IMG/VR virus record: IMGVR_UViG_3300030392_000962
Span: 1-40,134 of that record
Length of the DNA stretch: 40,134 nt
Source: a virus
Lineage: Duplodnaviria > Caudoviricetes
Strand: one strand, 5' to 3'
Within the stretch, counting starts at the first letter, position 1, and each line of letters starts with the position of its first letter. The notes under the pieces were generated by a model. It worked only from the letters and a program-made list of their open reading frames with translations, had not been told where the DNA came from and searched no databases. Positions 1 to 37,605 of the stretch are shown here, piece by piece. The position numbers were made by a program, and so were the translations under genes.

Positions 1-300
1 TACAGTGTACATGACTGTATACAGCCGTCCATGACTGTACAACCATGTACGTGTATACACTGTAACCGCCTGATACATGCAAAATTCTGGCACGGGTATC
101 TACACATATATAATAGCTTCGCCAAGCCCTGCCCCCCTCGTGCGCGTGTGCGTGGGATCGGGATCCGGATCGGGATCCCCACCCCCCAAGACAGTGTACT
201 CCGGGAGAAGACTTCTAAAGATTCTCTGTTTCATGTAATCGATGTACATGTATACACAATTGTACATACGTGCCATGTCGTGCCAGGCCATATCAGCTGA
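1..300. repeat. Low-complexity non-coding region rich in TGTAC/GTAC, with 4x 6-bp (G/C)GGATC tandem repeat at 154-177
   Basis: CATGACTGTA at 10-19 and 30-39; many TGTAC/TGTATAC; gggatc-gggatc-cggatc-gggatc at 154-177; no ORF with an RBS. Confidence 0.7.
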
Positions 301-407
301 TTTGGCATTGGTCTGTCAGTCGAGGCTATATGGATCGCCTGACTGCGCCCACCATGTCTGTCTGTGCCTCAGTCACGTGGCTACATAGCCAGATCATAGC
401 TAAAGAC

Positions 408-436
408 TTGACAGACCATTGAAAGTGTGGTTCCAT
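408..436 (+). promoter_or_regulatory. Putative sigma70-type promoter for early module A
   Basis: TTGACA-17 bp-TTCCAT with TG upstream of the -10; the -10 is weak; lies ahead of the first early gene. Confidence 0.4.
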
Positions 437-491
437 GATCCCCGTAGCTGACAGGCGTCTAGGTTGGCTACCAATCTACATAGGGAGATGC

Positions 492-710
492 ATGATGGAA
501 GTTAATATCGAACGAGTCACCATTGATGGGAAATCCCATACGGTTTGTCGGAGCTGTGCTGATGCGGTTTACGATCATGGGGAATTCTGGGAACAGAGTG
601 AGGGTGAACTGGCTAGGAATGTTTTGACTACAGCGGTGATGGATGGAGACAAGTATCCAGTTCACGCTTGTTTGGCACAAGACGGATGTAAATGCCGATG
701 CCAAAAGTAG
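492..710 (+). CDS. Small Cys-rich hypothetical early protein
   Basis: RBS AGGGAG before ATG 492; CxxC and C-terminal CxCxC. Confidence 0.7.
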   Translation: MMEVNIERVTIDGKSHTVCRSCADAVYDHGEFWEQSEGELARNVLTTAVMDGDKYPVHACLAQDGCKCRCQK

Positions 711-765
711 GTTAAGTGTTGCTAGAGCAATCAACCAAGGTTGATTGCTCTGACGGTTACTTAAC
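711..765 (+). other. Intergenic long hairpin
   Basis: Arms AGAGCAATCAACC (724-736)/GGTTGATTGCTCT (739-751) plus outer GTTAAGT/ACTTAAC; no U-tract. Confidence 0.75.
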
Positions 766-781
766 TAGCAGGGAGTGAGTG

Positions 782-1114
782 ATGGGACATAGACCAACAC
801 ATCGTGGACATAGGGCACCAACGCCATATGTGCCATACGGTACCAGGCCTGATAGCGACATACCTGCTATCAAGCGAGTCCACAACTCGACGATTAGAGT
901 CAATAAAATTCGCAATAGGGAGCAGTGGGCCTGGGCAAGTGGGAAACGGCTTGCCAGTATCAAGCCCAAACCAGTGCAACCGTGTGCTGAATTCAGGGGA
1001 AGATTCCATAGGCGCAACGGCGCATTGTGTTGTGGGTATGTCCATTATAAGAATGTTTGTTATCGGGTTGTGGGTGGGATTAAATCCCTCCTTCCCTGTA
1101 AACATCAAGAATAG
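782..1114 (+). CDS. Hypothetical basic early protein
   Basis: AGGGAG RBS before ATG 782; fills the gap between two hairpins; no recognisable family. Confidence 0.45.
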   Translation: MGHRPTHRGHRAPTPYVPYGTRPDSDIPAIKRVHNSTIRVNKIRNREQWAWASGKRLASIKPKPVQPCAEFRGRFHRRNGALCCGYVHYKNVCYRVVGGIKSLLPCKHQE

Positions 1115-1282
1115 TTTCACTCGCTCTGATTATTAAATCAGATCGCCCGTGAGTGGAACCGAATTGGTAAGCGTGCGCAGCCTTGGTATACCTATGCCAT
1201 TTTGATTATCGATGCCATGATTCCAATGGGATTATGACATGGGCAATCAAAGCCCAAATCTCAATGGAAGGGGGAAACACAA

Positions 1283-1501
1283 ATGGCAACACGACACACA
1301 TGCGGCGGTCCTGTATTTGGACGGTTGACCGCTGGCTGTATCCGTTGTGATGAATTGATAGGTGGTGCGGATCCTGTACGCTGGAATGGGCCCACACAAC
1401 GTGAAAAGGATGAGGCATACAGACTATGGTTAGCACGATTGAAGGCACATAACTGTCAGCTTGAGAATTGCGGTCCAGTTTGTACAGCATTTGATTATTA
1501 A
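1283..1501 (+). CDS. Small Cys/His-rich hypothetical protein
   Basis: GGAAGGGGG RBS; HxC..CxxC..HxC..CxxxC pattern. Confidence 0.7.
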   Translation: MATRHTCGGPVFGRLTAGCIRCDELIGGADPVRWNGPTQREKDEAYRLWLARLKAHNCQLENCGPVCTAFDY

Positions 1502-1563
1502 CCACACACAGTTGAACGTGATGACCAACATCACACTAAATCTTGACGGTAGGAGTGTATCAA

Positions 1564-1797
1564 ATGGGCACTAACGAAACATATATAGATCGGGTTGACC
1601 TATTGGAGTACTGGCGTATGAGTAGCGCCTATATGCATACACGGTATGGTCGTATGCTATGGACGGCCGACCACTACACAAAGCGCTACTTCCTAAGCTC
1701 TAGAGATACCGGATACCGCGTGTATGAATCTGAGCTTAATCTCCATAGAACAAGAGTCTACAAGAGCTTAGATAGAATAATTAATACATATTCATAG
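1564..1797 (+). CDS. Hypothetical protein, paralog/allele of 35132-35383
   Basis: AGGAG RBS; YIDRVDLLEYW...RMLWTADHY aligns with YIDRVQLTAFW...RMYWATDRY. Confidence 0.75.
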   Translation: MGTNETYIDRVDLLEYWRMSSAYMHTRYGRMLWTADHYTKRYFLSSRDTGYRVYESELNLHRTRVYKSLDRIINTYS

Positions 1798-1833
1798 TTA
1801 AGACCTTTAGATACTGATCTCAGCTATTAATAC
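1796..1833 (+). repeat. 38-bp sequence identical to 35378-35415
   Basis: AGTTAAGACCTTTAGATACTGATCTCAGCTATTAATAC in both places, each directly after the homologous small gene. Confidence 0.95.
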
Positions 1834-1853
1834 ACTAGGGAGTAAATGACAAC

Positions 1854-2534
1854 ATGACATTAACAGAGAAACCACAAAAATACTGGTGTTTAGCGTCTAC
1901 GCCTAAACTTATGACATTAGCAGAAGCGCACAAAATTGCACACAGTCTGGGCAATGCTTCCAAAATGCCTGGCAAAACCTATGGCCTACCAGCTAAGGAA
2001 TGCAGTGTTGGTGGACGATTACGCAATGTTGAGAATAGCGTGTGTTTCGGATGCTATGCACTCAAGGGCAGATACATAATGGAGAACGTCCAGACGGCGG
2101 AATATATACGCCTGGACAGTATCACGCATCCATTATGGGTAAATGCTATGTCCGTCCAGATCAACCACTATTGTAAACGTGTTCCCTTCTTTCGGTGGCA
2201 CGATAGCGGCGATCTGCAAAGCTTAGAACATCTACAAAGGATAGTTGAAGTAGTAAAGCTTACGCCTAGTGTCAAGCATTGGTTGCCAACAAGAGAATAC
2301 AAGATCGTCAAACTATACAGGGATTTATACGGTGCATTCCCTAGCAATTTAGTAGTGCGGTTATCTGGTCACATGATAGATGAGCCGCCGCCTAGTGGCT
2401 ATGGATTGCCAACGTCCACTGTTGTTTCTGATCACTCAGAAACGTGCCCGAGCCGCCAACAAGGTAATGAGTGTGGCGATTGTAGGGACTGTTGGGACCT
2501 TGACGTTATCAACGTATCCTACGCCAAACATTAG
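1854..2534 (+). CDS. Phage GP88-like protein (Cys-cluster, radical-SAM-like)
   Basis: SKMPG..LPA..C..C..CYA, FRWHDSGD, HWLPTRE, NLVVRLS, C-terminal CP..CGDCRDCW. Confidence 0.8.
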   Translation: MTLTEKPQKYWCLASTPKLMTLAEAHKIAHSLGNASKMPGKTYGLPAKECSVGGRLRNVENSVCFGCYALKGRYIMENVQTAEYIRLDSITHPLWVNAMSVQINHYCKRVPFFRWHDSGDLQSLEHLQRIVEVVKLTPSVKHWLPTREYKIVKLYRDLYGAFPSNLVVRLSGHMIDEPPPSGYGLPTSTVVSDHSETCPSRQQGNECGDCRDCWDLDVINVSYAKH

Positions 2535-2565
2535 ATCAACCACATAGCAGTTAGGAGTTTGAATT

Positions 2566-2775
2566 ATGTACACAGTTACTAATTATAAAACCAAGAAATC
2601 ACTCAAGGTTGCGGTAGCAGCCGGAGAACGTGTCACCTACTACCAGCCTGGGCCATTCGCCGGAAACGAACCTGATAATGGTACGATTTTCTTAGAGGGG
2701 CCACACTATCCCGAAGCTCACAAGTGGTACGCACAGGCTACCGTTAAGGACGGCGCAATCACAAAAGTTAAATAG
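2566..2775 (+). CDS. Conserved small phage protein
   Basis: AGGAG RBS; NYKTKKxLK..YQPGPF..EGPHYPxxHKWYA motif recalled from phage hypothetical proteins. Confidence 0.85.
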   Translation: MYTVTNYKTKKSLKVAVAAGERVTYYQPGPFAGNEPDNGTIFLEGPHYPEAHKWYAQATVKDGAITKVK

Positions 2776-2776
2776 T

Positions 2777-2838
2777 TTTGGCTACCGTGACAGTACTCGA
2801 CACTTGATCTAGGTCGAGTACTGTCCTGGGCAGCTAAA
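2777..2838 (+). other. Intergenic long hairpin
   Basis: Perfect 13-bp arms GACAGTACTCGAC (2789-2801)/GTCGAGTACTGTC (2813-2825) plus an imperfect outer stem. Confidence 0.75.
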
Positions 2839-2869
2839 TCCTTACAGTTCAGTTGAGGAGCAATGACAA

Positions 2870-3214
2870 ATGAATGATCTAGATACCAGTAAATTTAGGA
2901 CCAGGAACCTAATGTTGCTAGAAGATAGACGTGATCACGCCGAGGATCTCAAGAATCGTGGATACGTAGGTACTAAGTGGGAACCACCTGGCTCCCTCGA
3001 TATGTCCACCTGGGACATTGCCACGACCACTGTGATGACAGGCTGTGAGTTACTAAAATTTATGAGGCTACGATCTGAAAAAACGAGTGCCTCTGAACAA
3101 GTTCTTTTAGAGAAAATCCAGGGGTTAATATCGAATGCGCGTGTAGGCTACGTGGTGCGATGGCGTGTAGACATATTCACTGATCAATATTTTGAAATCG
3201 AACGTGTTAGCTAA
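2870..3214 (+). CDS. Hypothetical early protein
   Basis: GAGGAG RBS within the repeat leader; 114-aa ORF. Confidence 0.75.
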   Translation: MNDLDTSKFRTRNLMLLEDRRDHAEDLKNRGYVGTKWEPPGSLDMSTWDIATTTVMTGCELLKFMRLRSEKTSASEQVLLEKIQGLISNARVGYVVRWRVDIFTDQYFEIERVS

Positions 3215-3246
3215 AAATTACAGTTCAAGTAAAGGAGCAATGGCAA

Positions 3247-3510
3247 ATGAGTAACTTAGCTGGTTGTAAACTCAGTTCGGAATGTAGCTGTACTAAGTGT
3301 GTTGAGATCGATTGGGACGCACCATGTGTGAATTGCAATTTGCCTCAGCGTGAGTGTTGCGGTTGCCATGAGGACGAACACTATGACTATTGTGAAACAG
3401 GCATTGCGGAAGCACGATTCTTCAATGAGCGAGATAAATTTCTCCAACGCCGCAAGCAATTCCGGGAGTTCGATGCGGGACTCTGGCGCAACTGGGCCTC
3501 GGAAAGCTAA
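3247..3510 (+). CDS. Cys-rich hypothetical early protein
   Basis: AAGGAG RBS; multiple Cys clusters. Confidence 0.7.
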   Translation: MSNLAGCKLSSECSCTKCVEIDWDAPCVNCNLPQRECCGCHEDEHYDYCETGIAEARFFNERDKFLQRRKQFREFDAGLWRNWASES

Positions 3511-3588
3511 TCAAATGATGGCATCGAGAGTGATGATGATCCAGTATCTATCAGCGATTAATCCTTGGAGTTCAGTTAAGGAGATGGC

Positions 3589-3879
3589 ATGACAAAAATA
3601 ACAGGTGGCAACTCACTGGCGAGGATAGCTCGTAGATTTATTGCAGGGTTGCGGGATGAATTAACGTGTGCGGAATTTGATGCCATGCGTATATCAAATT
3701 CCGCAAGAACCAGTAATCGATTCTGTTACTCGCACGATTATTGCGATGCAGACATGGTAATGATGGAATCAATCCAAGCGGTTGTGGGTAAAGGCGACAT
3801 AGATATCCTAGGTGACAACTACGTAAATATGAGAAATAGTGCATGGCTGCTTGCTAATCAAATGATGGAAGCGAGGTGA
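3589..3879 (+). CDS. Hypothetical early protein
   Basis: AAGGAG RBS; CxSHDYCDAxMxM motif recalled from phage hypothetical proteins. Confidence 0.8.
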   Translation: MTKITGGNSLARIARRFIAGLRDELTCAEFDAMRISNSARTSNRFCYSHDYCDADMVMMESIQAVVGKGDIDILGDNYVNMRNSAWLLANQMMEAR

Positions 3880-3933
3880 TAACGACACACATTCCGGTAG
3901 TTAAGACTTTACAGTTCAAGTTAAGGAGATGAC

Positions 3934-4287
3934 ATGGTATACGAGATTCAAATGATAGTTGAGGGCCAGTGGACTAACGAAATTGGAGAATCTATCGAGT
4001 TCGATACTGAGGATGCCGCATGGGTTGCAGTAGCTGGACTCAAAACACTGGGCGAGGATTGGCAGGCGGCTGAATATCGTGTCTACGAGATTCAAAATCC
4101 CTCGCCAGGCAAAAAAGAAAATTTAAAAAAATGTGAGTCCTGCGAGGCGACAGATCCACACACTTCTGCGACTGCCGTACGATATCCAATTAACTCAGAT
4201 TACCGTGGGTATGAAATGTGCGAGGAGTGCGCTACAGAATACGACGGGGCGGTACTAGATATTCCATCAGAAGAGGTGCAAGCGTGA
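3934..4287 (+). CDS. Hypothetical protein with C-terminal CxxC..CxxC; allele of 39885-end
   Basis: AAGGAG RBS; aligns with the translated 39885-40134. Confidence 0.8.
   Translation: MVYEIQMIVEGQWTNEIGESIEFDTEDAAWVAVAGLKTLGEDWQAAEYRVYEIQNPSPGKKENLKKCESCEATDPHTSATAVRYPINSDYRGYEMCEECATEYDGAVLDIPSEEVQA
4042..4165 (+). repeat. Repeat matching the window end (4042-4073=40011-40042; 4087-4165=40056-40134)
   Basis: Direct comparison; constant offset of 35,969 bp. Confidence 0.97.
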
Positions 4288-4347: not shown

Positions 4348-4809
4348 TTACAGTGCCTCGGCAACGCCCCTCGCCAAAAGTTTAGCCGCCTCAGAATCTA
4401 TCTCAGAGCCCCGATCATCGGGGCTCTGGTGGTTCTGGGCCACTTCGCCAAGATCGTCGCTCTCTGGGGCATCTGGAGCCTCTGGGAGCATATCAAACGG
4501 CCCCGGCTCACCCGCCTCCGGCAGTGTATCGGGCATGGTTAGATATTCAGCCGACTCTGCTAGAACCGGGATGCCGAGAGCATCCCAATGCGATTCCTGT
4601 TCAAAGACGTCCATATCTGGCCACGAATCACCACGACTGAGCATACCTGAAATATGCAGATTCATATTCCGAGTCGAGATGCCGTCCAGGCAAAATTTGC
4701 ACTCTGAATTAATCATCACGCCGGGATAGCCGGGATCAGGGAATTTTGCCGTCCCTTTGCCTCGACAGTACAGACATGGTTCTTTTTTATCTGCGTCAGG
4801 GACTGACAT
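4348..4809 (-). CDS. Hypothetical protein, N-terminal CxxCxGxG..CxxCxxG zinc finger, acidic tail
   Basis: GGAGG RBS before ATG 4809, overlapping the terS end; CLYCRGKG...CKFCLDG. Confidence 0.7.
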   Translation of the reverse strand: MSVPDADKKEPCLYCRGKGTAKFPDPGYPGVMINSECKFCLDGISTRNMNLHISGMLSRGDSWPDMDVFEQESHWDALGIPVLAESAEYLTMPDTLPEAGEPGPFDMLPEAPDAPESDDLGEVAQNHQSPDDRGSEIDSEAAKLLARGVAEAL

Positions 4810-5305
4810 TTTCACCCTCCGGTAATTCTGGCTGTTTGGCTCGCTGAACAAGCACCTCGAGGTCGGCCGCGTCCATATTTTCGAGATGAACGTGAAGGTG
4901 GTTCTGGGTCCCGCCGGGATCATCGTCCCACAGCCGCGTATGCTGTCCTAGAAGTTTCAGACTCTGAGTAGCGGCATCGGGTTTGAAGTAGCGGCGGCCG
5001 TCGGGGGCCTCCTCGATTCCCATAGCGGTATCGACATTTTGCTGAAGCCTCGCAATTACGTAGGTACGGGTCACTGCGGCGGCCCGCTCCTGCTCTGCCT
5101 GAAGCTCCGAAATACGGGCGGCAATTTTGGAATCCTTCAGCAGAAGGTGCGCTCGTGTATCGTAGCGCGGTATCCGCCGTCCATCAGCGTCGGTAGCCTC
5201 ACGGCCGTAAGCCGTAACATATGCGCGATAGCCGTTACCGCCGTTGACTGCATACTCCTGAGCGAATTTTGCTTGCTTCAGCGTGAGCTTCTTATGGGTT
5301 GACAT
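4796..5305 (-). CDS. terS: Terminase small subunit
   Basis: LTxKQxxFxxEY..NGxxAYxxAY..AxxLL..IxxRIxEL..V+xxL..LxLLGxH pattern typical of phage TerS. Confidence 0.85.
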   Translation of the reverse strand: MSTHKKLTLKQAKFAQEYAVNGGNGYRAYVTAYGREATDADGRRIPRYDTRAHLLLKDSKIAARISELQAEQERAAAVTRTYVIARLQQNVDTAMGIEEAPDGRRYFKPDAATQSLKLLGQHTRLWDDDPGGTQNHLHVHLENMDAADLEVLVQRAKQPELPEGENVSP

Positions 5306-5313
5306 AGTCACGC

Positions 5314-5342
5314 ATAATAGCACACGTACAATCACCCTGCAA
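5314..5342 (-). promoter_or_regulatory. Putative promoter for terS (near-leaderless transcript)
   Basis: TTGCAG-17 bp-TATTAT with extended TG; ATG 8 nt downstream and no SD. Confidence 0.55.
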
Positions 5343-5380
5343 TTGAGGCTTTCTGTGTGTCTGCAATACGGTGACAAGAT

Positions 5381-5410
5381 TTGACACCACCTGACGCACT
5401 GTGATATCAT
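5381..5410 (+). promoter_or_regulatory. Putative sigma70 promoter, divergent from terS
   Basis: TTGACA-18 bp-TATCAT with extended TGn. Confidence 0.65.
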
Positions 5411-6852: not shown

Positions 6853-7135
6853 ATCTCTGAATGATCAAGGGGGTGCCTTCTCCCACCCAGGCACCCTCTG
6901 TATTGAATTGGAAGAATTCTTCTGCTGTTTCATGGGGATCTTCACCGGGCTCGCAACCCTCTTTGAACTCTTCTGTGAGTATTTCGATACAGGTATCTCT
7001 ATCGTATATTGCTACCGGGCCTTTGTACTGCTGGTATCCGATACCGATAAATGCGTCGTCGAGATTGTCGAACAGCAATATCTCCTCGTCGGGATAATGT
7101 TCGTCTATCCAGTTGTTTATTCGATCTCTGGTCAT
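6827..7135 (-). CDS. Conserved phage hypothetical protein
   Basis: DxLDDAxIG..AxYD..EIL..AEEFFxFNxEGAWVGExTP motif; ATGA overlap with the MTase stop. Confidence 0.85.
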   Translation of the reverse strand: MTRDRINNWIDEHYPDEEILLFDNLDDAFIGIGYQQYKGPVAIYDRDTCIEILTEEFKEGCEPGEDPHETAEEFFQFNTEGAWVGEGTPLIIQRFSPPPPSL

Positions 7136-7154
7136 TGCCACACAGCCTCAAATT
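7132..7154. repeat. 23-bp direct repeat, copy 1, flanking the methyltransferase
   Basis: TCATTGCCACACAGCCTCAAATT identical to 8094-8116. Confidence 0.95.
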
Positions 7155-8097
7155 GGTGCCCGGCTAATGTGGGCACCCTCTTCATTAATTCCCTGAGCGC
7201 ATAAGCGGCCTGTGCGGGCACGACGGCATTGCCCAACATCATCAGCGCAGCCACCCTATCCTCGATTTTCCAAGCATCATCCACGTTACGAACCGAACAT
7301 TCAGGCGCATACATCCCACTCCGCACTGGTGTTCCGTGCTTACAGGTTGCGGGGGCGAGCTCTGGGTAGTGTTCGACAATCCATTCCCAGCTTGGATCTC
7401 CCGGTCCTGGGGGGAATTCAGGGAGTTCGGGTCTGTTGATATTCCCTTCTCTCCCCCTCGTGACTTGCTCATCTTCTTCCGATTCGGTTTCCCCACAATC
7501 GCAGGGTGATTGCTCAGTCCCTGTTGTCCAAAGTTCGGCCTGTTGGAGATTTTCTCTGCTTCCGCCACCGTTGGCGTGGGCCAGGATGAAGAGCCGTTCT
7601 CGACGGTGACTTGCGCCGATGTCCGAGGCCTTGAAACAGTCCCACTCCGCATCGTACCCGCTTTCGGCCAGTTCTCCGAGAATGGTACCAAAGTACTCGT
7701 GAGCAACGAGGCCTGGGACGTTTTCCAGGAAGACGTAGCGTGGTCGTAGTTCGCGTATGATCCTGATGGTATCGGGGAAGAGATTTCTATCGTCTGAGGC
7801 ACCGGATTGTTTGCCGGCGACCGAAAAGGGCTGGCAGGGGAAACCGGCGATAACGAGGTCCACCTTTCCAGCAAAGAGTTCTGTTGGGAAGGTTTTAACA
7901 TCAGACCAGATCGGAGCCTCGTCAAGTAGTCCTTCTGAAGCTCTCTCTGCCAGGATTCTCGCGGCCTTGATTTCCCGTTCAACGTAACAGATCGTTCTAG
8001 TCGGGAGAACATCTCGGACTCCGAGGTCGAGTCCACCGATTCCGCTGAACAAGCTGACGACGGTATATATAGCCACATTTGGGTCTCCTTTATTCAT
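7132..8097 (-). CDS. DNA (cytosine-5)-methyltransferase, large (alpha) polypeptide
   Basis: Motif I LFSGIGG, IV GFPCQPFS, VI ENV, VIII HRRERLF, X LGNAVVP; motif IX not evident. Confidence 0.95.
   Translation of the reverse strand: MNKGDPNVAIYTVVSLFSGIGGLDLGVRDVLPTRTICYVEREIKAARILAERASEGLLDEAPIWSDVKTFPTELFAGKVDLVIAGFPCQPFSVAGKQSGASDDRNLFPDTIRIIRELRPRYVFLENVPGLVAHEYFGTILGELAESGYDAEWDCFKASDIGASHRRERLFILAHANGGGSRENLQQAELWTTGTEQSPCDCGETESEEDEQVTRGREGNINRPELPEFPPGPGDPSWEWIVEHYPELAPATCKHGTPVRSGMYAPECSVRNVDDAWKIEDRVAALMMLGNAVVPAQAAYALRELMKRVPTLAGHQFEAVWQ
7242..8078 (-). CDS. Nested alternative-frame ORF, probable MTase beta polypeptide (M.EcoHK31I-like)
   Basis: 278 aa open in another frame inside the MTase gene; WPTP segment and C-terminal RLNVRFVTWMM..IGW resembling motif IX. 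Confidence 0.7.
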   Translation of the reverse strand: MWLYIPSSACSAESVDSTSESEMFSRLERSVTLNGKSRPRESWQRELQKDYLTRLRSGLMLKPSQQNSLLERWTSLSPVSPASPFRSPANNPVPQTIEISSPIPSGSYANYDHATSSWKTSQASLLTSTLVPFSENWPKAGTMRSGTVSRPRTSAQVTVENGSSSWPTPTVAEAEKISNRPNFGQQGLSNHPAIVGKPNRKKMSKSRGGEKGISTDPNSLNSPQDREIQAGNGLSNTTQSSPPQPVSTEHQCGVGCMRLNVRFVTWMMLGKSRIGWLR

Positions 8098-8116
8098 TGC
8101 CACACAGCCTCAAATT
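8094..8116. repeat. 23-bp direct repeat, copy 2
   Basis: Identical to 7132-7154; contains a GAGG RBS and the stop/start overlap on the minus strand. Confidence 0.95.
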
Positions 8117-8836: not shown

Positions 8837-9042
8837 ATGTGACGAGGGCCTCGTCACGTTATTTTTTAAACCTGTCATGTGCCGACACTATCGTCACGTC
8901 CTGACACATAATCCTCGGAACGGCTGTATACTGCGGTTCCTGATGTGACGAATGCACGTCACGTCCCGTCGCATCACCTTAATTATAAGAGTCAAAATCA
9001 TAACGTGACGAGATTTATCTCTTATAAGGGCGTCAGTCACGT
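8837..9042. repeat. Iteron-like TCGTCACGT repeats in both orientations; putative replication origin
   Basis: Copies at 8837(inv), 8851, 8891, 8943(inv), 8956, 9003(inv), 9035; AT-rich inverted TTATAAGAG/CTCTTATAA; directly downstream of the helicase-like gene. Confidence 0.65.
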
Positions 9043-10353
9043 TGTTTTAACTGAGTAAAAGACTTCTTTTCCGCGCTTGATCTTGTTAAATTTCGAGGTA
9101 TCAGAAAAAACCGTCGTGACGGTCGAGCGTGCTATACCCAGTTTTGCAGCGATGTTAGTAGCAGTATCCTCCCCGGCCTCGTGTAACAAATGATCTGTGA
9201 TCTGCTCGGTAACTGATCGCTGTTCAGTGGCCTTCAGTTCTGGGTAGTCCTCGGCCTTCGCCACGCGCATAGACTGAAGACCGTACTCGTCAAAGGTTAG
9301 GCCGTAGTAGGACGGCCTCGCGAGTTCAGTATCGTTGGCCTTGGCCATGCTCAGTTGGATGCCGCGCTCGTTGTCCCGCTGCACCAGCGTCTGCCGCACG
9401 ACGATGTCGGCTGCATTTTCAAACATGGTTGATCCAAATACGTTATCGCTGTTACGCGGCGGGTGAGCGATTGCAAGCCATGAGGTGCCAAATCCATTCA
9501 GCGCATCGGTGATGCTGTTGCCGACCTCGTTATCGTTAAGGTTGCCCATGCCGGCGCGGCTGATAGAGTCGAGCACAACAAATTCAACACCGAGCTTTTC
9601 GATAGCCTGCCGGATACCGGAGCGCACGTCTGCGAGGCCCTTGCCCCGTGCGTTGAGGGTAAGAAGGGGACGATCAGGAGGCAGCCCGAGTGCGCCGTTA
9701 ACCGCACCAATACGGCGCTGTATGCTCGACGCACTTCGCTCAAGATTAACAAATAAAGATTTTTTTTGGCTGACTTTCCAGTAATGGTTGGTGTTGGAAT
9801 CTGTTGCGACACACATAGCCATAGCAATGTAGCTCTTGCCCGAGCCGCGTTGCCCTACGAGGATCGTACCGCCCTGCTCGATGACGAGAGGGTGGATCAG
9901 AAACTGTGGAGGATCACCCAGCGGATCACCGGCGAGTTCGGTAGGCTGATACTGTCCGATCCAAACATCCCAGACAAGTCGGCAGAAATTATCGAAATCA
10001 TATTTAAGTAACATCTGCGTGTACGTTGTACCGTCCGCTGTTTTGGGCGGTTCGTCACCGAGCAGTTTATGAGCGGCGTTCGACAGGCGGCCGCGTTCCG
10101 CATGGCGCTCGATGTTGAACGTGTCATAGCCGAGAGACACACGGTTACTCTTACATGATAGATACTCATGCGAAGCTTCGCTGCATAAAAACATTTCCAC
10201 ATACGAATGAACACCCGTTGAGCTTGGCCTGACGTTCAAAGCCTCAAACTCGATGCGGTCTGGACTTTCCAGTTCCTTGTGGGTAGTGACGATTTTACCG
10301 TCGCCGCGCTCGCCGTCAATGAGCGTTGGCGGAGGAAGATTAATGATTGCCAT
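9037..10353 (-). CDS. RecA-family (AAA_25/RepA-like) helicase-type ATPase with C-terminal HTH
   Basis: Walker A GQRGSGKS, Walker B VVLDSIS, AH..FGS motif, C-terminal TATNIAAKLGIARSTV HTH. Confidence 0.85.
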   Translation of the reverse strand: MAIINLPPPTLIDGERGDGKIVTTHKELESPDRIEFEALNVRPSSTGVHSYVEMFLCSEASHEYLSCKSNRVSLGYDTFNIERHAERGRLSNAAHKLLGDEPPKTADGTTYTQMLLKYDFDNFCRLVWDVWIGQYQPTELAGDPLGDPPQFLIHPLVIEQGGTILVGQRGSGKSYIAMAMCVATDSNTNHYWKVSQKKSLFVNLERSASSIQRRIGAVNGALGLPPDRPLLTLNARGKGLADVRSGIRQAIEKLGVEFVVLDSISRAGMGNLNDNEVGNSITDALNGFGTSWLAIAHPPRNSDNVFGSTMFENAADIVVRQTLVQRDNERGIQLSMAKANDTELARPSYYGLTFDEYGLQSMRVAKAEDYPELKATEQRSVTEQITDHLLHEAGEDTATNIAAKLGIARSTVTTVFSDTSKFNKIKRGKEVFYSVKTT

Positions 10354-10660
10354 GAAGTTGCTCCTTTAGTCCAGCCACTTTTTGAGAGACAACATACTGA
10401 TCAGCGCGTGGGCGATAACGTGTGAACCGAGCGGGGAGGCGTGTGACAGGAGTCCAGTCGGGATTAATCAAAGTCTCGATGAGATTGTATGCAAAGAGGG
10501 CCTCGCCCTCAGTTTTAAACTGGCTGTTATAGGCGTAGAGGCCCCGGAGAGAGTCCAGTGCGCCCTCCAGACGCTGGACCCTCTCGGAAAGCTCTGTATG
10601 GCGACGTGAGTGGTTTAAAAGGATGGTCGAAAAGGTGCGTAGGACACTCGCTAACTGCAT
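10340..10660 (-). CDS. Hypothetical protein
   Basis: TAATG coupling to the upstream gene; carries the AAGGAG RBS of the helicase gene at its end. Confidence 0.65.
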   Translation of the reverse strand: MQLASVLRTFSTILLNHSRRHTELSERVQRLEGALDSLRGLYAYNSQFKTEGEALFAYNLIETLINPDWTPVTRLPARFTRYRPRADQYVVSQKVAGLKEQLHGNH

Positions 10661-11751
10661 TAGCTGCCCCCTGCGTTAGTTTCCTTCCCGCCGTCGGCAG
10701 ATAATTTCTGTGACACAAGGGCGTTAATAGCTTCCATCGCGCTTATGTGATCATTCGACGTCAGCTTTGGCCACTCTTTCTTGTAGTTGTCCAACACCCA
10801 CTTTTTAACCTGGTCTGGTGTCCACTCCAGAACTTTAGACGCCTCGTCTATTGAATCCCTGGCTGCACTGGCAATCGCCGATGGCTGATTGCACCATGCA
10901 GACCCAGACTTATGTGCCCACACGGGCATTTTCCCTTTTTTAAAAAATTCTTCACTGTGAATCGGGCAGATGTCAAACCAACTGTGACTACCGTCTTTCA
11001 CCTCTGCTTCAACTGTTGCGGTAGCCACTGGCTGCGGGTCAACGTCGGCGTGATCTACCTGTGCCCGTTTAAAGATGGCACTGGAGCCGGTAACATTTTT
11101 TATTAAATTAACGAATGCCCGTTTGATTGCCCTGTCTTGGACATTGTTCGGGAGGTCGGCCCGGTCCATGCCGTTAAACTTTTTTTCTTTTGACCATGCC
11201 ATTGCGACCCATGCGGCATAGGAATTGCCGTTGGCATCGAGAGCCTCGGCGCGGTATTTGTACCTAAACTCGAAGTTGTCCCAGTCCTCGAACTCCTCGA
11301 TGGCAACCGGCCGCCATGAGATATTAAACATCGCCCTCAGATTCTCTGCGCCGGCCTCGTACAGGGCTAGTTGGCCTTTACCAGCCGGATCGCCGTAGTC
11401 GATATTTTTTTCCATCTCCTGTACTGCTGCTGTAACTAGATTTCTACGCCTTTTTACCTCTGCAAGCGACATAACCTCCTCAACCTGGTTGGCCATCTGT
11501 ATCTCAGGATCCTGTTTGACTAGCTCGTGGCTTTGCATTTTTCCTCTCCTTCGCGCAATAGTTTTTTTATAATTGTCTACAGTGCCTAGTGACGGTGGCT
11601 CGGGATAACACTCGCAGCGGAGGCCGTACTTTTTCTCCCCGGTCACACCGCCGAGCCAAATGATCTGAACCTGGGCTTCGCAGACTGTGCAGGAACGATT
11701 TTTTACAAGGGGCTCGAGCTCGTCATAGGTAGTTGGGAGTTCAGTTGCCAT
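10660..11751 (-). CDS. Putative phage recombination/ssDNA-annealing-type protein with N-terminal zinc finger
   Basis: GGAGG RBS; DYG..L..GAExL..F and N...AxKRAxV..TGxS.IF motifs; position at the head of the replication operon. Function is inferred. Confidence 0.55.
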   Translation of the reverse strand: MATELPTTYDELEPLVKNRSCTVCEAQVQIIWLGGVTGEKKYGLRCECYPEPPSLGTVDNYKKTIARRRGKMQSHELVKQDPEIQMANQVEEVMSLAEVKRRRNLVTAAVQEMEKNIDYGDPAGKGQLALYEAGAENLRAMFNISWRPVAIEEFEDWDNFEFRYKYRAEALDANGNSYAAWVAMAWSKEKKFNGMDRADLPNNVQDRAIKRAFVNLIKNVTGSSAIFKRAQVDHADVDPQPVATATVEAEVKDGSHSWFDICPIHSEEFFKKGKMPVWAHKSGSAWCNQPSAIASAARDSIDEASKVLEWTPDQVKKWVLDNYKKEWPKLTSNDHISAMEAINALVSQKLSADGGKETNAGGS

Positions 11752-11770
11752 CGCAGCCTCCATGTTTAGT

Positions 11771-11866
11771 GTGGCTGCCGGGCAAAGAGCTTTGGGAGAG
11801 CCCGTTTGTAGGAGTGTGTGTTAGCGCGAACTACTGGCTGGATAGCTGCGCCAGCCCGACAGCCAC
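11771..11866 (-). ncRNA. Candidate 96-nt structured RNA (three-way junction with anti-SD single strands)
   Basis: 13-bp closing stem GTGGCTGTCGGGC/GCCCGGCAGCCAC, two internal hairpins; begins 6 nt after a -10 box. Confidence 0.55.
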
Positions 11867-11871
11867 GAGCC

Positions 11872-11900
11872 ATCCTATATCGATTCAGTAGCTATGTCAA
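11872..11900 (-). promoter_or_regulatory. Sigma70 promoter for the structured RNA and replication operon
   Basis: TTGACA-17 bp-TAGGAT on the minus strand. Confidence 0.7.
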
Positions 11901-11916
11901 CCCCTATCTAGGGGGA

Positions 11917-12165
11917 TTAGTTGCTGTTATCCACTGCGTTGTCATTGTGGTAGTAGTCCCGCACGTCGCCGAGCATTGTCTCGGCCTCGGCGGGATGACG
12001 GTAGACATGGCGGGCGAGAATCTGGCGGACGCGCTGAAAAGAAACATCCTGTTCTGCCGCAATCTCTCGGAGTGTTTTCTGCTGCCTGCGAGCCTCTATG
12101 ATAGCTGCGTTTCGGTCATGTTTTTCAGGCGAGCCGCCCCTGCGGCCGCTCTTGGTACTAACCAT
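11917..12165 (-). CDS. HTH DNA-binding protein (sigma region 4-like)
   Basis: RNAAIIEAR..KTLREIA..VSFQRVRQIL. Confidence 0.8.
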   Translation of the reverse strand: MVSTKSGRRGGSPEKHDRNAAIIEARRQQKTLREIAAEQDVSFQRVRQILARHVYRHPAEAETMLGDVRDYYHNDNAVDNSN

Positions 12166-12344
12166 TATTCGTTTTCCAGAACTTTAAGGGAGACTCCGCC
12201 GAGGAAGCCGAATATCCCCCCAATAACGGCTGTCACGATTTCAGTCGCACTCATCTCCATTCCTACATAGAGTGCCGCGCAGCTAAATATAGTCGCGCAA
12301 ATTACAGCAAGGGCAATTTGTGGGCGAAATTTTCCCCAGTTCAT
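12165..12344 (-). CDS. Small two-TM membrane protein, holin candidate, 59 aa (not in ORF track)
   Basis: GGAGG RBS; MNWGKFRPQIALAVICATIFSCAALYVG..IVTAVIGGIFGFLGGVSLKVLENE; TAATG coupling; TGGTATAAT extended -10 at 12369-12377. Confidence 0.75.
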   Translation of the reverse strand: MNWGKFRPQIALAVICATIFSCAALYVGMEMSATEIVTAVIGGIFGFLGGVSLKVLENE

Positions 12345-12444
12345 ACATATCCTCCGTTCAGCCTAGACATTATACCACTATGGAGGAATATCTCTTCCAA
12401 GCCTCTTACTATACTGCCGGTACAGCCATTGAAACTTCCACGTC

Positions 12445-13632
12445 CTAATCGTTGGTTAATGTCTCAGTGGGCGTCCCTATCGTCACTTCCACGTTGTCAG
12501 TCACATTCCAGTTAGCCGCGGTTACGCTCTGGTGAATTTTGAACTCCTTAGTTGCGAAACCATCGGAAATCCCTATCTCGTTCAGCTCAATCGTTAATGT
12601 TCCGATTTTCATCCTATCGAAGACACAGGCACCGCCTTCGGAATATATGTTGGATAGAATCAGGTTGCCTATTTTGCCGTTCACCGCTGTTGTAGGGGCA
12701 TCTATATGTATGCGGTCATACGAACCTCCAGACGTGACCATTGCCTCTGCCTGATGATGCCCGCCACCTATCGCTCTCATCCGAGAAGTGCCTGGAGTTT
12801 GATTGATCGACTGACCGTCTGAGGCATTTCCGATGATGTTTATCGTATGTGCCGTGGTGTTATCGAAATACAGATATGAACAACGAGACTTTTCAAGGAG
12901 CATTTCCCCTATCTCTAAATACGTAGAAGTGCCGCCACCGATCACAGTACCGCCAATCAGCACAGCCGTGGAGGTAGCCGCAGTACCACTAGCGGAGGTA
13001 TGGGCAGACGATGGTATTGCCCCGCCTGTATACACTGAGCCAACACTGACATTTTCAATTTTTATTTCTCGTACTGGCACAACGCCCAGCACAATTCTCA
13101 ACGTGTTATCATTTTTGTTTTCTTTGCGGAATGCAAGCATTTCTTCAAGAGCAGCCGAGGGAGTATCTACAGGCGCTGCATACACACCGGCATCTCCAGC
13201 TCTGAATGACCTATCCTGAAGTACCGTTTCATTCACAATTACCCCTGTCCCTGCCGTACTGCCCGCCACCAGTAGGGCCGCCGCCGCTTGAGGATTCAGG
13301 CCACAGGCCCGAAGCAAGCTGTATGGGCTTCGTGCCACTTGGAACACCCGCTTCCACTTAGTGGATTCTGACTGTAGATACTCGACTTTCTCAAGGAGCC
13401 AGTTCCTGTAGACTACGGACTTCCTATATGCCTTGAGAGGGCTGCGCCATATGGCCCCAGGCGTCGCTACAATGCCCCTCCAGATAGCCCGGAAGAAACG
13501 CCCTACCGAACAGACTACAGCACAGAACCCCCGTCCCACAGCACAGAACCCCCGCCATATGTTGTGGGGAATCGCCGCGATCCAGTGCCACGCCGCAATT
13601 AGCCACCCCAGTATAGCCAGGTCGATTCTCAT
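12445..13632 (-). CDS. Hypothetical membrane-associated protein with amphipathic N-terminal repeats and a beta-rich C-terminal domain
   Basis: 395 aa; W/F-periodic N-terminus, hydrophobic segment around aa 110-135, beta-strand-rich remainder. Confidence 0.75.
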   Translation of the reverse strand: MRIDLAILGWLIAAWHWIAAIPHNIWRGFCAVGRGFCAVVCSVGRFFRAIWRGIVATPGAIWRSPLKAYRKSVVYRNWLLEKVEYLQSESTKWKRVFQVARSPYSLLRACGLNPQAAAALLVAGSTAGTGVIVNETVLQDRSFRAGDAGVYAAPVDTPSAALEEMLAFRKENKNDNTLRIVLGVVPVREIKIENVSVGSVYTGGAIPSSAHTSASGTAATSTAVLIGGTVIGGGTSTYLEIGEMLLEKSRCSYLYFDNTTAHTINIIGNASDGQSINQTPGTSRMRAIGGGHHQAEAMVTSGGSYDRIHIDAPTTAVNGKIGNLILSNIYSEGGACVFDRMKIGTLTIELNEIGISDGFATKEFKIHQSVTAANWNVTDNVEVTIGTPTETLTND

Positions 13633-13796
13633 ATCAGCCTCGATAAAACAGTCACTATGATCAATAAAATTAAAAGAAAAAATCCAACGCCTTGCATCAT
13701 CAGTATCAGGTTGATGCGACGCTGCTGGGCTCTTAACTCCATAAGAGACATACTCATATTCTGCTTCAACGTCTCGAAGCGCTCCTTTTCATTCAC
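13629..13796 (-). CDS. Small coiled-coil + C-terminal TM protein, 55 aa (not in ORF track)
   Basis: GTG start; MNEKERFETLKQ..RRINLILMMQGVGFFLLILLIIVTVLSRLI; GTGA/ATGA overlaps on both sides. Confidence 0.7.
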   Translation of the reverse strand: MNEKERFETLKQNMSMSLMELRAQQRRINLILMMQGVGFFLLILLIIVTVLSRLI

Positions 13797-15814
13797 GCGA
13801 CGAGTTCTTCACACACGACGCTGACAAACCCGGCTCTCTGTGCCAGCCTGTCCGAGGCCGTATGGCCCTGTGCGGAACCGGCACGCAGCGTGGGATACCA
13901 CTGTAACGACTTGATCTTGACATAGCTGGCCGTAGTCAGCGGTCCCCATAGAAACGCCGGCAGCGTGGCCAGGTCTCTCGCCGTCTTCAGGTCGGATATC
14001 ACTACTTCAGGAGTTGTATGTCTCAGCTTGGCGGTAGCCGCGATATCAATATCGAACGCGAACCGTTCAGGCATGGCAGGGTTCTTGAGATACACAAGCT
14101 CGATACTCTGTACCCTCGGCGTTTGCGTGTTGTCACCGCCGTCACGGTTCAGGGTGAATCTCAATCCTATGTTGTTCCCGGTTGCGCCTGCACCGCTGGC
14201 CAGTTGGAACCTCTTGGTGCCGCTGACAAAATTCCCGACTGTGCTTGTTGAACGTGCTGCGTCATCCTCGCCGTAGGTTCCTGCCACGTACTCTCCGCTT
14301 GTGGACGAACTGAGATCAGCCGCAGACATCCTCACGTCCAGCCAGTGGCTGGGGTGAGTGGGCATACCGCCGTCTACATAAGGAAGGTCGATCAGCCCTG
14401 CCGCCTCACGCTTGATAGACACACCTGACAGGGGGTTGGTATTCGGGTATGCGAGGAACCGCGCCGCGACGCTGCTGCTGGATGCCCTGACAGCGAAATG
14501 GAGGCGTTCGACATAGTCGTCTCTTGACGATACATCGATCCACTCAACTGCCACATTGGCCGTGCCGTGCCGGTACATATGGTGCCAGCCCGTGCCGTTG
14601 TGGCACAGTATCCGGGCGTTCCGGCTGGAGGCGTGGCCGCCGAGAGACATATAAAGCATCTGGCCAGATGAGACCAGCGTCTTGGCTGCCCCCAGTAGGT
14701 CGGCCGGTACGCCGTCATTCTGATCAAGACCGAGATTGGTCTCGATAGTGCGGACGCCGCCTGACGTATCCATCGTATATATAGACTGCGGTTCTGAGTT
14801 TCCGACATGGGGAGCGATCCACAGTTTACCCTTGTGTACGGCGAGCCTGTTAACGAAATTAGTTGTGCCTGCCGCAAACGTAGTAAGTACCTTCTGGAAC
14901 GTCCACGTACTGGGAGAGGTGTCCACCTCCCACAGTGCATCGCTGCCAAGGACATATAGCTTGTCGGCATCATCGATACCGGGATAAACAGCAACGCCGT
15001 GTACGCCCACGTCAGGGATGTTTATAGACTCATCAGCCCAGTTGGCAGCCTCGTCTGAACTGCTGAAAAACGTGATAGCGTCAGCGGCATAGTCGTGTAT
15101 GGCGGCAACTATCTCGTTGCCTACAGTAGCCAGCCTGCCCACAGAATAATCAAGGTTGGCGGATATGGTGGTAGAGAGATTGGCGGTGATCTCGGTGGAC
15201 GGCGCATTCCATGTGGTGCCGTCCGGCGTTCGCCGCGTCATGTAGTCATTGCCGTTCCAGAACAGGCAGACGAGCTGCGTCTTATGGGTCTCAAGGTCGA
15301 GTGCTACTGTCTCTCCGCCCGAGGCGTAGACATTCTGCACGTTCTGTACCCATGTGTCACCCGAGCCGTCATACTGGGCAGAGATGACTCCCTTGTTCCC
15401 TGCGCCGTCGTCCTTGTCCCAGACCGAATATAAATGAGTCACGCCGCTGCCGGAGAAGTGGGCTGACGCCCTCAGTACCTCGCCAGCGGTAGCCTCGGTC
15501 GTGTCCTCTGCAAGAATCGGCAGATACCAGCCACTCGTCCAGCGAGTGTCTATTCGAGAGTCATAAAACCCCTGGTATGCAGTGGGTTCTTCCGACTGTG
15601 CAGGCGGTACGTGGTCATGGGTAAACCCCGCACGTAATTCATTAAACAGTATGGTAAGGCCCGGCTGGACACGTTCGGGCCTGTGAATGCCCTCTGTGAT
15701 CAATTGTGGGGCATTCGGCTCGACAGGGAGTTCCTGAACAGGAACCACCCGCCCGTCGATGTTTCGGGGTATTACTGCATAATCCTTCGAGTTGATCCTG
15801 ACACTGTAGGACAT
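13793..15814 (-). CDS. Virion tail protein, probable beta-propeller nozzle/stabilisation protein
   Basis: 673 aa, beta-rich, Asp-box-like RRTPDGTTW and SSDEAANW; follows the adaptor-like gene. Confidence 0.65.
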   Translation of the reverse strand: MSYSVRINSKDYAVIPRNIDGRVVPVQELPVEPNAPQLITEGIHRPERVQPGLTILFNELRAGFTHDHVPPAQSEEPTAYQGFYDSRIDTRWTSGWYLPILAEDTTEATAGEVLRASAHFSGSGVTHLYSVWDKDDGAGNKGVISAQYDGSGDTWVQNVQNVYASGGETVALDLETHKTQLVCLFWNGNDYMTRRTPDGTTWNAPSTEITANLSTTISANLDYSVGRLATVGNEIVAAIHDYAADAITFFSSSDEAANWADESINIPDVGVHGVAVYPGIDDADKLYVLGSDALWEVDTSPSTWTFQKVLTTFAAGTTNFVNRLAVHKGKLWIAPHVGNSEPQSIYTMDTSGGVRTIETNLGLDQNDGVPADLLGAAKTLVSSGQMLYMSLGGHASSRNARILCHNGTGWHHMYRHGTANVAVEWIDVSSRDDYVERLHFAVRASSSSVAARFLAYPNTNPLSGVSIKREAAGLIDLPYVDGGMPTHPSHWLDVRMSAADLSSSTSGEYVAGTYGEDDAARSTSTVGNFVSGTKRFQLASGAGATGNNIGLRFTLNRDGGDNTQTPRVQSIELVYLKNPAMPERFAFDIDIAATAKLRHTTPEVVISDLKTARDLATLPAFLWGPLTTASYVKIKSLQWYPTLRAGSAQGHTASDRLAQRAGFVSVVCEELVA

Positions 15815-34960: not shown

Positions 34961-35069
34961 TTGTCTACTCCACACATAAAGACAGTCAAACCTCGGCCAC
35001 AATCTAGACCTTTAGATGGCCAATTCGTACGTGATATGGGGAATAATAAAAAATAATCCAATCTAAGGG

Positions 35070-35099
35070 TTGACACCATATGATTAGTGATGATAGGCT
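35070..35099 (+). promoter_or_regulatory. Sigma70 promoter for early module B
   Basis: TTGACA-18 bp-TAGGCT, extended TGn, A-rich UP-like element upstream. Confidence 0.7.
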
Positions 35100-35131
35100 T
35101 TGACGCAATCTGAACCTAGGGAGTGTACCAA

Positions 35132-35383
35132 ATGGACGTCAATGGACGGTATATAGACAGAGTTCAACTAACAGCGTTTTGGAATGCATCAAAGACCTCG
35201 GGCCGGACTCCACATGGCCGGGATATGGCCGATTGTCTATGTGACCACTGCCGGATGTCCCGCATGTATTGGGCCACTGATCGCTATATGGTTGCGCGAG
35301 GATGGCCAGGACTTAGGTATACCAATCATAAAATATGTGTCTTATTGGCCGTTGCCGAAATCGAGAATGATCTACGCAGTTAA
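35132..35383 (+). CDS. Hypothetical protein, homolog of 1564-1797
   Basis: AGGGAG RBS; shared YIDRV.L..W and RM.W..D.Y. Confidence 0.75.
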   Translation: MDVNGRYIDRVQLTAFWNASKTSGRTPHGRDMADCLCDHCRMSRMYWATDRYMVARGWPGLRYTNHKICVLLAVAEIENDLRS

Positions 35384-35443
35384 GACCTTTAGATACTGAT
35401 CTCAGCTATTAATACGCATTGATAGCTGATGCGTGTACCTAAA
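35378..35443 (+). repeat. 38-bp repeat (=1796-1833) forming the left arm of an intergenic hairpin
   Basis: TCAGCTATTAAT-acgc-ATTGATAGCTGA plus outer TTTAG/CTAAA. Confidence 0.85.
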
Positions 35444-35466
35444 CTAATTCAATAGGAGTGTGTGAC

Positions 35467-35559
35467 ATGGCTAGTCTAGAACTCTACATAGCAGACCCGG
35501 AAGCCGGAAGTGGTCCGGCGGACGTCGAATTGGAAATATTACAGGAGGCCGGATACTAA
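35467..35559 (+). CDS. Tiny acidic peptide, 30 aa
   Basis: TAGGAG RBS; MASLELYIADPEAGSGPADVELEILQEAGY; TAATG coupling. Confidence 0.5.
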   Translation: MASLELYIADPEAGSGPADVELEILQEAGY

Positions 35560-35813
35560 TGAAAACATACCTAGTGATAAGCAAAAACAGTAGTACAACA
35601 GTACACATTGAGGATAGTTATTATGTTAACCAATTGGACCCAAAGATGGACCCGGCCGGACCACAGACAACCCTTTGTGGTCGGCCGTACTGGCAACGCC
35701 TCAAGTTGATCAACCTCAGGCGTAACAATGGTAGGTCACTTCCGGACCAGGAGTACTGGGACGCCATCAACCCACTATTTCAGCTTTGCAAAAGCTGCAA
35801 GAGGAAAGTCTGA
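35559..35813 (+). CDS. Small zinc-binding hypothetical protein
   Basis: AGGAGG RBS; VH..TLCG..CKSC. Confidence 0.75.
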   Translation: MKTYLVISKNSSTTVHIEDSYYVNQLDPKMDPAGPQTTLCGRPYWQRLKLINLRRNNGRSLPDQEYWDAINPLFQLCKSCKRKV

Positions 35814-35815
35814 CA

Positions 35816-36721: not shown

Positions 36722-36752
36722 ATCAACCATAGTGGCCGGAGGTAAATAGATA

Positions 36753-36965
36753 ATGCTTAAATTCACATACAACGCGGCCGAAAAGTTAGCATTCTCACTA
36801 TCTGTTGATGAGTCAATGCATCCACGTAATGCTGAGTCCTCCACAACCTACATAGTGCAGCAAGCGCCGATTTTTAATGAGGATGGTTTGATTACCGGGT
36901 ATCACGACGATCTGTATGTTGTTGCTGCTACAGGCGAATTTAGCACAGAGTCCCACATTTTATAG
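36753..36965 (+). CDS. Hypothetical early protein
   Basis: GGAGG RBS. Confidence 0.65.
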   Translation: MLKFTYNAAEKLAFSLSVDESMHPRNAESSTTYIVQQAPIFNEDGLITGYHDDLYVVAATGEFSTESHIL

Positions 36966-37016
36966 TCAACCATAGCGGCCGGGCGCGTGCCAGAATCGCG
37001 CCAGGGAGTGTGAATT

Positions 37017-37208: not shown

Positions 37209-37251
37209 CCCATATAGTGCCGCCTAGGGCTACTAGGCTAGGAGTTTGGCT

Positions 37252-37560: not shown

Positions 37561-37605
37561 CTAACCCATAGTGCCGCCTAGGGCAACTAGGCTAGGAGTG
37601 TATCA

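Follow-up and report, generated by a model that had tools for sequence, protein, structure and literature searches.

C4 of phages P1 and P7 (RF01695) is a small, stem-closed RNA of three stems whose unpaired parts pair with a ribosome-binding site (RBS) and occlude it in part (PMC5320573, PMC12197685, PMC2864571). CI of phage P4 heads the replication operon and pairs with an upstream partner, seqA, and a downstream one, seqC (PMC4825925). In phage T4, early mRNAs are shut off by the endoribonuclease RegB, which acts via GGAG and the bases downstream of it, with an A-rich extension (PMC1702504). Known cases of early-translation shut-off at the RBS, such as RegB, involve proteins, and the known phage antisense RNAs, C4 and CI, serve one operon each. 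Among bacterial small RNAs, RsaE is C-rich and carries an anti-Shine-Dalgarno (anti-SD) sequence. LhrC of Listeria is an RNA of the same kind (PMC4132741).

The window, that is, the whole 40,134-nt stretch of DNA analyzed, is a 40-kb marine phage record. Where its replication operon starts, at the 5′ end, lies a 96-nt element (11771..11866, minus strand) whose RNA is predicted to form a three-way junction. Like C4, the element has three stems, exposes an anti-RBS strand and belongs to a longer transcript, a likeness that concerns predicted topology only. C4 is about 77 nt long and is cut by RNase P at GGW, whereas the element has 96 nt and begins with GUG at the predicted transcription start. 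While C4 acts on the antirepressor ant mRNA of its own immunity region or operon, the predicted targets of the element are many unlinked, tagged early genes, the best of which lie 10-26 kb away on the other strand.

The element also resembles P4 CI and IsrK of Gifsy-1 (PMC4825925), in that it leads a replication-type operon, follows a host promoter and has a complement just downstream. In contrast to both, it has no room for an upstream seqA-like partner, and its downstream 11-bp partner nets about −1 kcal/mol. Its strongest complement is directed at other transcripts, and the sequence gives no sign of termination control. T4 RegB shares the likely purpose, early mRNA shut-off at the RBS, but it is a protein nuclease that uses an A-rich extension, whereas the RNA proposed here would recognize a GUGU extension through base pairing. 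As in LhrC and RsaE, unpaired C-rich strands are able to pair with the SD sequences of several mRNAs. However, those RNAs are host regulators with terminators of their own, whereas the element heads a phage operon and matches a tag that is private to the phage.

The first-pass annotation had pointed to C4 and CI as precedents. An Rfam search returned no C4-type match at E up to 5 in the window, and no relevant match in the window, in three closed-leader loci of unrelated phages or in four loci with analogues. The element is not a member of the C4 or CI family, though it resembles both. Measured against the general class of trans-acting anti-RBS RNAs, its unpaired seed matches unlinked RBSs above chance, with composition-preserving controls borderline. 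The RNA-like element is real and had not been described before. In the mostly open-access literature searched, no publication was found that describes a phage RNA mirroring an RBS tag common to early genes.

Gene context, promoter and predicted fold

The minus strand of the window carries structural genes (terminase, capsid and tail) and, downstream of them, the replication-type operon, which encodes a 363-aa protein, an AAA_25 helicase-like protein, a VRR-NUC-like nuclease and a C5 methylase. At both ends of the window the plus strand carries short genes presumed to be early, along with two homologues of GP88 and a gene for an AAA ATPase. Position and annotation served to assign early, middle and late sets of 26, 7 and 26 genes, whose start codons were selected manually. 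No family match to an integrase or an antirepressor was found among the 49 proteins scanned, and no tRNA or tmRNA was found. Related tail genes sit in one Dehalococcoidia MAG and one Alphaproteobacteria MAG.

The first operon gene (10660..11751, minus strand; phrog_10048) encodes the 363-aa protein, likely a ssDNA-annealing protein as judged by its position. A related locus, L081, carries a RecT-like gene at the equivalent position, and an atlas entry, SSAP_Sak at 0.84, serves as a lead only. For this protein, a sequence-based structure search returned matches to ribonuclease A alone, all of them spurious.

A helix-turn-helix gene of 82 aa (11917..12165, minus strand; Sigma70_r4 at E 5.9e-5, under the curated cut-off) ends just upstream of the promoter. 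Its relatives comprise a single 96%-identical cluster. This gene is a candidate regulator of the promoter, and a palindrome with 6-bp arms that abuts the −35 box (11901..11914) is a candidate operator. In L081, which has the same gene order, an inverted repeat also adjoins the −35 box (L081:11192-11214).

Several other features of the window were observed. Two long overlapping minus-strand frames (7132-8103 and 7242-8078) both match DNA methyltransferase families and are flanked by 29-nt direct repeats at 7132 and 8094; this methyltransferase gene is apparently absent from a 5,951-nt and a 6,116-nt contig of other runs. The small terminase gene (4796-5410, minus strand) lies among plus-strand genes, separate from the large terminase gene (31329-32876).

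The promoter-like site ahead of the element is of the sigma-70 type, TTGACA-17-TAGGAT (11872..11900, minus strand), and agrees with 10 of 12 consensus positions. Taken alone this match is weak, because six such sites were found in 5 kb as against 4.1 in shuffled sequence. Five sites of 10/12 or better occur in the window, this one included. The closing stem starts 5 nt past the −10 box, with GUG, and the element is the sole case in the window of a promoter followed immediately by a closing stem of at least 10 bp.

In the predicted fold, the closing stem P1 joins a 5′ arm (11854..11866) to a 3′ arm (11771..11783, read from 11783 to 11771) over 13 nt, with 92% Watson-Crick pairs and one G.U pair. 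It encloses the P2 hairpin (11822..11853), whose loop CCAGCCA lies at 11841-11835, then an unpaired 18-nt linker (11804..11821) bearing the anti-tag ACACUCCUA, and the P3 hairpin (11787..11803), with the 7-nt loop CUCCCAA. As minus-strand RNA the 96 nt fold at −44.1 kcal/mol (z −5.93), and 0 of 200 shuffles folded equally well. The linker is open in this fold, with an unpaired probability of about 0.9 for nt 46-58. The same 96 nt give z −2.1 as plus-strand RNA and z −1.7 as minus-strand DNA, and the G.U pairs favor minus-strand RNA; the fold is specific to RNA and to the minus strand. It is not the strongest fold in the window, as a GC-corrected scan of 96-nt windows gives the element a residual of −2.7 and places 16 windows at −2.9 or lower. 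The promoter and the stem-closed architecture with two inner hairpins, a linker and a loop, as described by the first-pass annotation, were thus both recovered.

No intrinsic terminator was found past the closing stem, and the first operon RBS starts 10 nt beyond it. Because no terminator follows the stem, the RNA would be the 5′ leader of the replication operon, probably freed by trimming.

Complementarity of the linker to early RBSs

An accessibility-corrected scan of the presumed transcriptome, which counts opening costs on both sides, places early RBSs at ranks 1-3, all on the plus strand. The first is a 12-nt target at the RBS of a 30-aa ORF, 35467 (35453..35464), the second a 9-nt target at that of an AAA (MoxR-like) ATPase gene, 37606 (37593..37601), and the third a 10-nt target at that of ORF 1564 (1549..1558). 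These are the complements that the first-pass annotation had named, and all three are present. The start of ORF 35467 resembles that of the AAA ATPase gene, and this ORF may be a remnant.

Five further plus-strand targets had been overlooked. They comprise 7 nt plus a G.U pair at the RBS of ORF 35132 (35119..35126; rank 9), the first gene behind a TTGACA box at 35070, and 8 nt plus a G.U pair at that of ORF 37017 (37004..37012; rank 10). Weaker targets are found at the RBSs of ORF 37252 (7 nt, 37239..37245; rank 14), ORF 2566 (7 nt, 2552..2558) and ORF 782 (6 nt plus a G.U pair, 771..777), the latter two from a count of perfect runs together with the accessibility scan. Five early RBSs and one other start region are among the top 10 of the accessibility-corrected scan. 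A 9-nt linker match at 29589-29597 lies at no RBS and is antisense to the portal gene.

The sequence that these targets share is distributed unevenly in the genome. With both strands searched, the tag GGAGTGT has eight copies, none on the minus strand: five at early RBSs, two antisense to minus-strand genes and one that is the complement of the element itself. On the presumed transcribed strands this leaves five copies, 5/5 at early RBSs. The shorter GGAGT occurs in 10/26 early vs 1/33 other start regions (Fisher p 0.0007), and perfect linker runs of at least 7 nt in 7/26 vs 1/33; late-gene leaders are mostly of the GGAGG or GAGGT type. The anti-SD sequence of the ribosome is ACCUCCU, and the linker fits GGAGU leaders because it carries ACUCCU instead.

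Against early start regions, the linker ranks first among the 25,816 C-rich 18-mers tested, which were drawn from 55,300 in 7250-34900. The second rank is held by a coding 18-mer in the portal gene with a score of 52 to the linker's 53, and therefore chance can come near in 55 kb. The portal coding sequence (29589-29604, minus strand) contains an 11-nt complement of the ATPase RBS that is predicted to be partly unpaired and was treated as a chance control. With genes called automatically, the longest runs matching the element measure 12, 10, 9, 8 and 8 nt in its own genome, vs at most 8 nt in seven other phage gene sets.

Controls that hold CUCCU fixed give a more graded picture. The observed linker score is reached at p 0.001-0.018 with random flanks (0.0012 in the 18-mer ranking), at p 0.03-0.10 with A/C-rich flanks and at p 0.017-0.165 with shuffled flanks (0.017-0.10 and 0.095-0.165 in two tests). 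Energy-only tests with flank controls were mostly non-significant (p 0.048-0.45 and above), and a ranking by free energy only, which GC content dominates, did not single out the linker. The target leaders are not all independent, since several are copies of one another. The selectivity of the linker is thus real in this genome, but only moderately, and not overwhelmingly, improbable. The first-pass annotation had made its reading depend on a preference for early over other RBSs. That preference is found in the perfect-run counts and in ranks 1-3.

The same annotation had placed targets in both early modules. Targets do lie at both ends of the window, but this point is weakened by the possibility that the modules are alternative alleles and by the duplication of several leaders. 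Region 40000-40134 repeats 4031-4165 (125/135 identical), and contigs of runs X3, X5 and X8 extend the right-hand version from 40134 into 4166. Since other runs make this join, a single variable early region may exist in alternative alleles, 1-4030 and 35060-40134, that were joined in assembly; 1-4030 may represent another allele or the module of another phage. Run X8 connects the leader at 1550 with the promoter region of 35070. Accordingly, the early region varies and undergoes recombination at these leaders. Intergenic leaders repeated between early genes (1796-1833/35378-35415, 37214-37254/37568-37608 and 2851-2898/3228-3275), in some of which a small hairpin immediately precedes the SD, look like gene-swapping sites, because contigs of other runs skip between them. 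The right-hand module alone holds 5/8 predicted targets. Strong hairpins between early genes at 2774-2841, about 715-760 and 39796-39845 are candidate terminators or processing sites.

A second exposed strand, the P3 loop, had been matched to GGGAGA leaders in the first-pass annotation. GGGAGA is present at 483 and 5460, as stated, but there are 20 copies on the two strands and the pairing is near chance. With the P3 loop as seed, the accessibility-corrected scan showed no early RBS among its best 45 sites. GGGAG is found in 7/26 early vs 1/33 other start regions, and it is possible, if weakly indicated, that the loop is a second anti-SD sequence for GGGAG leaders.

Related phages and closed leaders elsewhere

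The relatives came from loci that carry the tail gene (77), a distant relative of the first operon gene (66), the terminase gene (80) or the ATPase gene (8), and homologue searches also used five proteins by sequence. A divergent homologue of the element was found in 0/38 related records and, by blastn, in none of 50,697 phage records. No promoter-anchored copy appeared in 225 family loci, and the first operon protein had no homologue in viral contigs. A metagenome scan yielded three loci, one near-identical and two without the element. Pattern searches returned 39 loci with the linker and 3′ arm, none with the 5′ arm, and at least 119 loci with the promoter and anti-tag (from 29 of 64 parts scanned), none with a stem above 10 bp; the early-leader hairpin pattern had 0 matches. 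The element is unchanged in a 96%-identical contig and in contigs of four runs, copies too close to be informative; the contigs of the four runs differ at only 4 of 1,586 bases that flank it. None of the sequencing runs listed as carrying the sequence is an RNA run, which has no bearing on expression.

Where a helicase is detectable in relatives, the replication genes mostly point toward the tail gene, whereas in the window they follow it, an inverted orientation that is confirmed by the 5,951-nt and 6,116-nt contigs. One other lineage (L078 and L081) has the order of the window, and there a promoter, an inverted repeat and a small repressor gene replace the RNA. Between the replication genes of another locus lies a non-coding array of short repeats (L048:12427-12739), with two alternating motifs and a period of about 37 nt.

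Mirrors of a genome's own tag were sought in 33 gene sets, namely the window and 32 relatives, several of them incomplete or partly fetched. A non-coding, closed anti-SD candidate is present in 25/33 of these sets, and the own gene set ranks first in 4/33: the window, G030, G032 and G040. In G040 (L206:285, minus strand) the loop mirrors GAGGUGCA, a sequence carried by six RBSs, of which five lie on the early strand. The hairpin of G032 (L215:17675, plus strand) comes after a block of genes tagged AGGAGCG, and the element of G030 (L219:13362, plus strand) is promoter-anchored and closed, like that of the window. Own-tag mirrors also lie behind the tail gene, on the late strand, in G018 (L228:11084, minus strand) and G037 (L230:9942, minus strand); G018 has a CACUCCU core and a preceding small membrane gene as in the window, with tagged RBSs on both strands.

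Own-tag mirrors of differing sequence are thus found in 5/32 relatives, and 27/32 present no clear case. Two early RBSs of G046 (97% complete) bear the tag of the window, but a search of that genome revealed no mirror element. The position test behind the tail gene gives 4/25 vs 2/25 on the control strand (p 0.06), and own-genome comparisons are biased, with a mean rank of 0.34 on the control strand too.

Some 110-120 nt past the tail gene, four loci (L090, L096, L098 and L114) have a conserved stem in common whose loop, built around an anti-GAGG core, comes in three variants. One orthologous gene has an RBS that tracks the loop in 3/4 genomes, G031 being the one in which it does not. This stem is not counted as support because G031 deviates and because the best 13-nt match of G032 goes to the loop of G027.

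Phages unrelated to this one have leaders of 55-118 nt immediately behind strong sigma-70 promoters. These leaders are closed by 9-14-bp stems, and most start with TG and end with CA. Such closed leaders occur at L193:12271, 10497 and 8978 (minus strand), L195:6151 (minus strand), L197:12784 (plus strand) and L175:12796 (plus strand), and further ones at L188:8434 and at L191:15375 and 19474 (all plus strand). Promoter-anchored closed leaders gave 10 matches in 66 loci vs 3 in shuffles. In six of these leaders, from four unrelated phages, the interior pairs just downstream, beside the RBS, in a CI/seqC-like manner (z −5.5 to −7.8).

Alternative explanations and a proposed model for early-gene damping

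The closed leaders that pair just downstream bear directly on how the element might act. One alternative, which we regard as unlikely, is a leader that acts in cis or targets itself, along the lines of P4 CI/seqC or IsrK: nt 17-28 would pair with the first operon RBS, the P2 loop might pair with the leader of the helicase gene, and the match between linker and early RBSs would be incidental. The element heads the replication operon as CI does (PMC4825925), and the six downstream-pairing leaders show no trans RBS excess. Nt 17-28 (11850-11839, in P2) complement the RBS of the first operon gene (11752..11762, minus strand), which is of the GGAGG type and not an early tag, over 11 bp with one bulge (duplex −16.9 kcal/mol), a pairing that the first-pass annotation had overlooked. 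The best 12-mer of the interior reaches −19.5 kcal/mol against the 30 nt downstream, as did 1/300 shuffles. An 8-mer located 24-17 nt ahead of the helicase start (10370..10377, minus strand; rank 5) is complementary to the P2 loop, possibly by chance, and one more exact copy of that 8-mer occurs on the minus strand inside a coding region (8611). GGCTG is found in 4/7 operon vs 2/52 other start regions, a post hoc count. However, pairing of the whole interior with the downstream sequence has z −0.3, about −1 kcal/mol is left to nt 17-28 after opening costs, and the first operon RBS remains outside the element when a long transcript is folded. A cis leader would also leave the early-RBS selectivity of the linker unexplained.

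That selectivity could be fortuitous if the element were a 5′ stabilizer only, with a stem that protects the replication mRNA and an A/C-rich linker that serves as a spacer. This explanation is quite unlikely. Unpaired linkers are typically A/C-rich, 3-17% of trials attain the observed count when the flanks of CUCCU are A/C-rich or shuffled, and both the portal-gene 18-mer and G046, with its tag and no detected mirror, are in keeping with a chance match. Yet the search space was one element, fixed beforehand by promoter and fold; protection does not need three further helices; the anti-SD core of the linker is in the right register; and every one of the five sense copies of the tag is an early RBS.

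A broader anti-SD decoy, in which the linker and P3 loop as two C-rich strands would occupy host mRNAs or a GGAG-binding protein, is very improbable. Two exposed anti-SD-like motifs and the 554 AGGAG..ATG sites in the Dehalococcoidia MAG that holds a related phage contig would suit it, but AGGAGTG occurs in 34 of those sites and AGGAGTGT in 4, vs 3/12 AGGAG-bearing early leaders here. Moreover, the host need not be this one, as a second related contig belongs to the Alphaproteobacteria MAG. Least probable of all is that no RNA element exists and that the locus is a fossil plus-strand RBS or a DNA hairpin at the edge of an inverted replication module: the plus strand does read an early-type SD and then an open frame (11818-12270), and the module is inverted relative to most relatives, but there is no start codon at a usable distance and no plus-strand promoter-like site in 9000-14000, neither plus-strand RNA nor DNA folds comparably (z −2.1 and −1.7 vs −5.9), and the stem begins at the predicted transcription start.

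The reading that we favor, a trans-acting RNA that damps early translation, is on balance probable, and as far as the sequence can indicate, the element is likely an early-gene brake of the phage antisense RNA type. The trans-acting early-gene silencer proposed in the first-pass annotation is consistent with the early-RBS selectivity and with the analogues in relatives. It is tempered by the missing terminator, by the near-identical copies that alone were found and by a P3 loop that pairs near chance.

In this model of a trans-acting brake, host sigma-70 polymerase would start at about 11866, as the consensus suggests, and P1 is predicted to close the RNA and keep the 18-nt linker open. Without a terminator, the RNA would act as an mRNA leader or, by analogy with P4 CI, would survive 3′-to-5′ trimming down to the 13-bp stem. 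The ACUCCU linker would fit GGAGU leaders and spare the GGAGG and GAGGU leaders of late genes and of its own operon, as can be read directly from these leaders. As the RNA accumulates, it may block ribosome loading on about 5-8 early genes, including the AAA ATPase gene. Because a host promoter would fire from the start, a stable RNA would accumulate as a timer, and the block on early genes may time the switch from early functions to replication. The P2 arm may also pair, if weakly, with the first RBS of the operon, as feedback or as a folding switch, and the palindrome at the −35 box together with the helix-turn-helix gene may later shut the promoter.

More tentatively, and with somewhat less than even confidence, the model may extend to a marine family whose phages carry private early RBS tags, each silenced by one matching RNA. 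In such a family, the operon leader would brake early translation and a second arm would read the operon's own RBS, with relatives using other places and other tags. If the model is true, starting replication would itself make the brake on early translation, an RNA-only switch from early to middle expression. One RNA that reads a shared tag on many early genes would imply a different timing of infection and provide a compact, programmable repressor. It would also explain the oddly extended RBS motifs that are common to the early genes of these phages.
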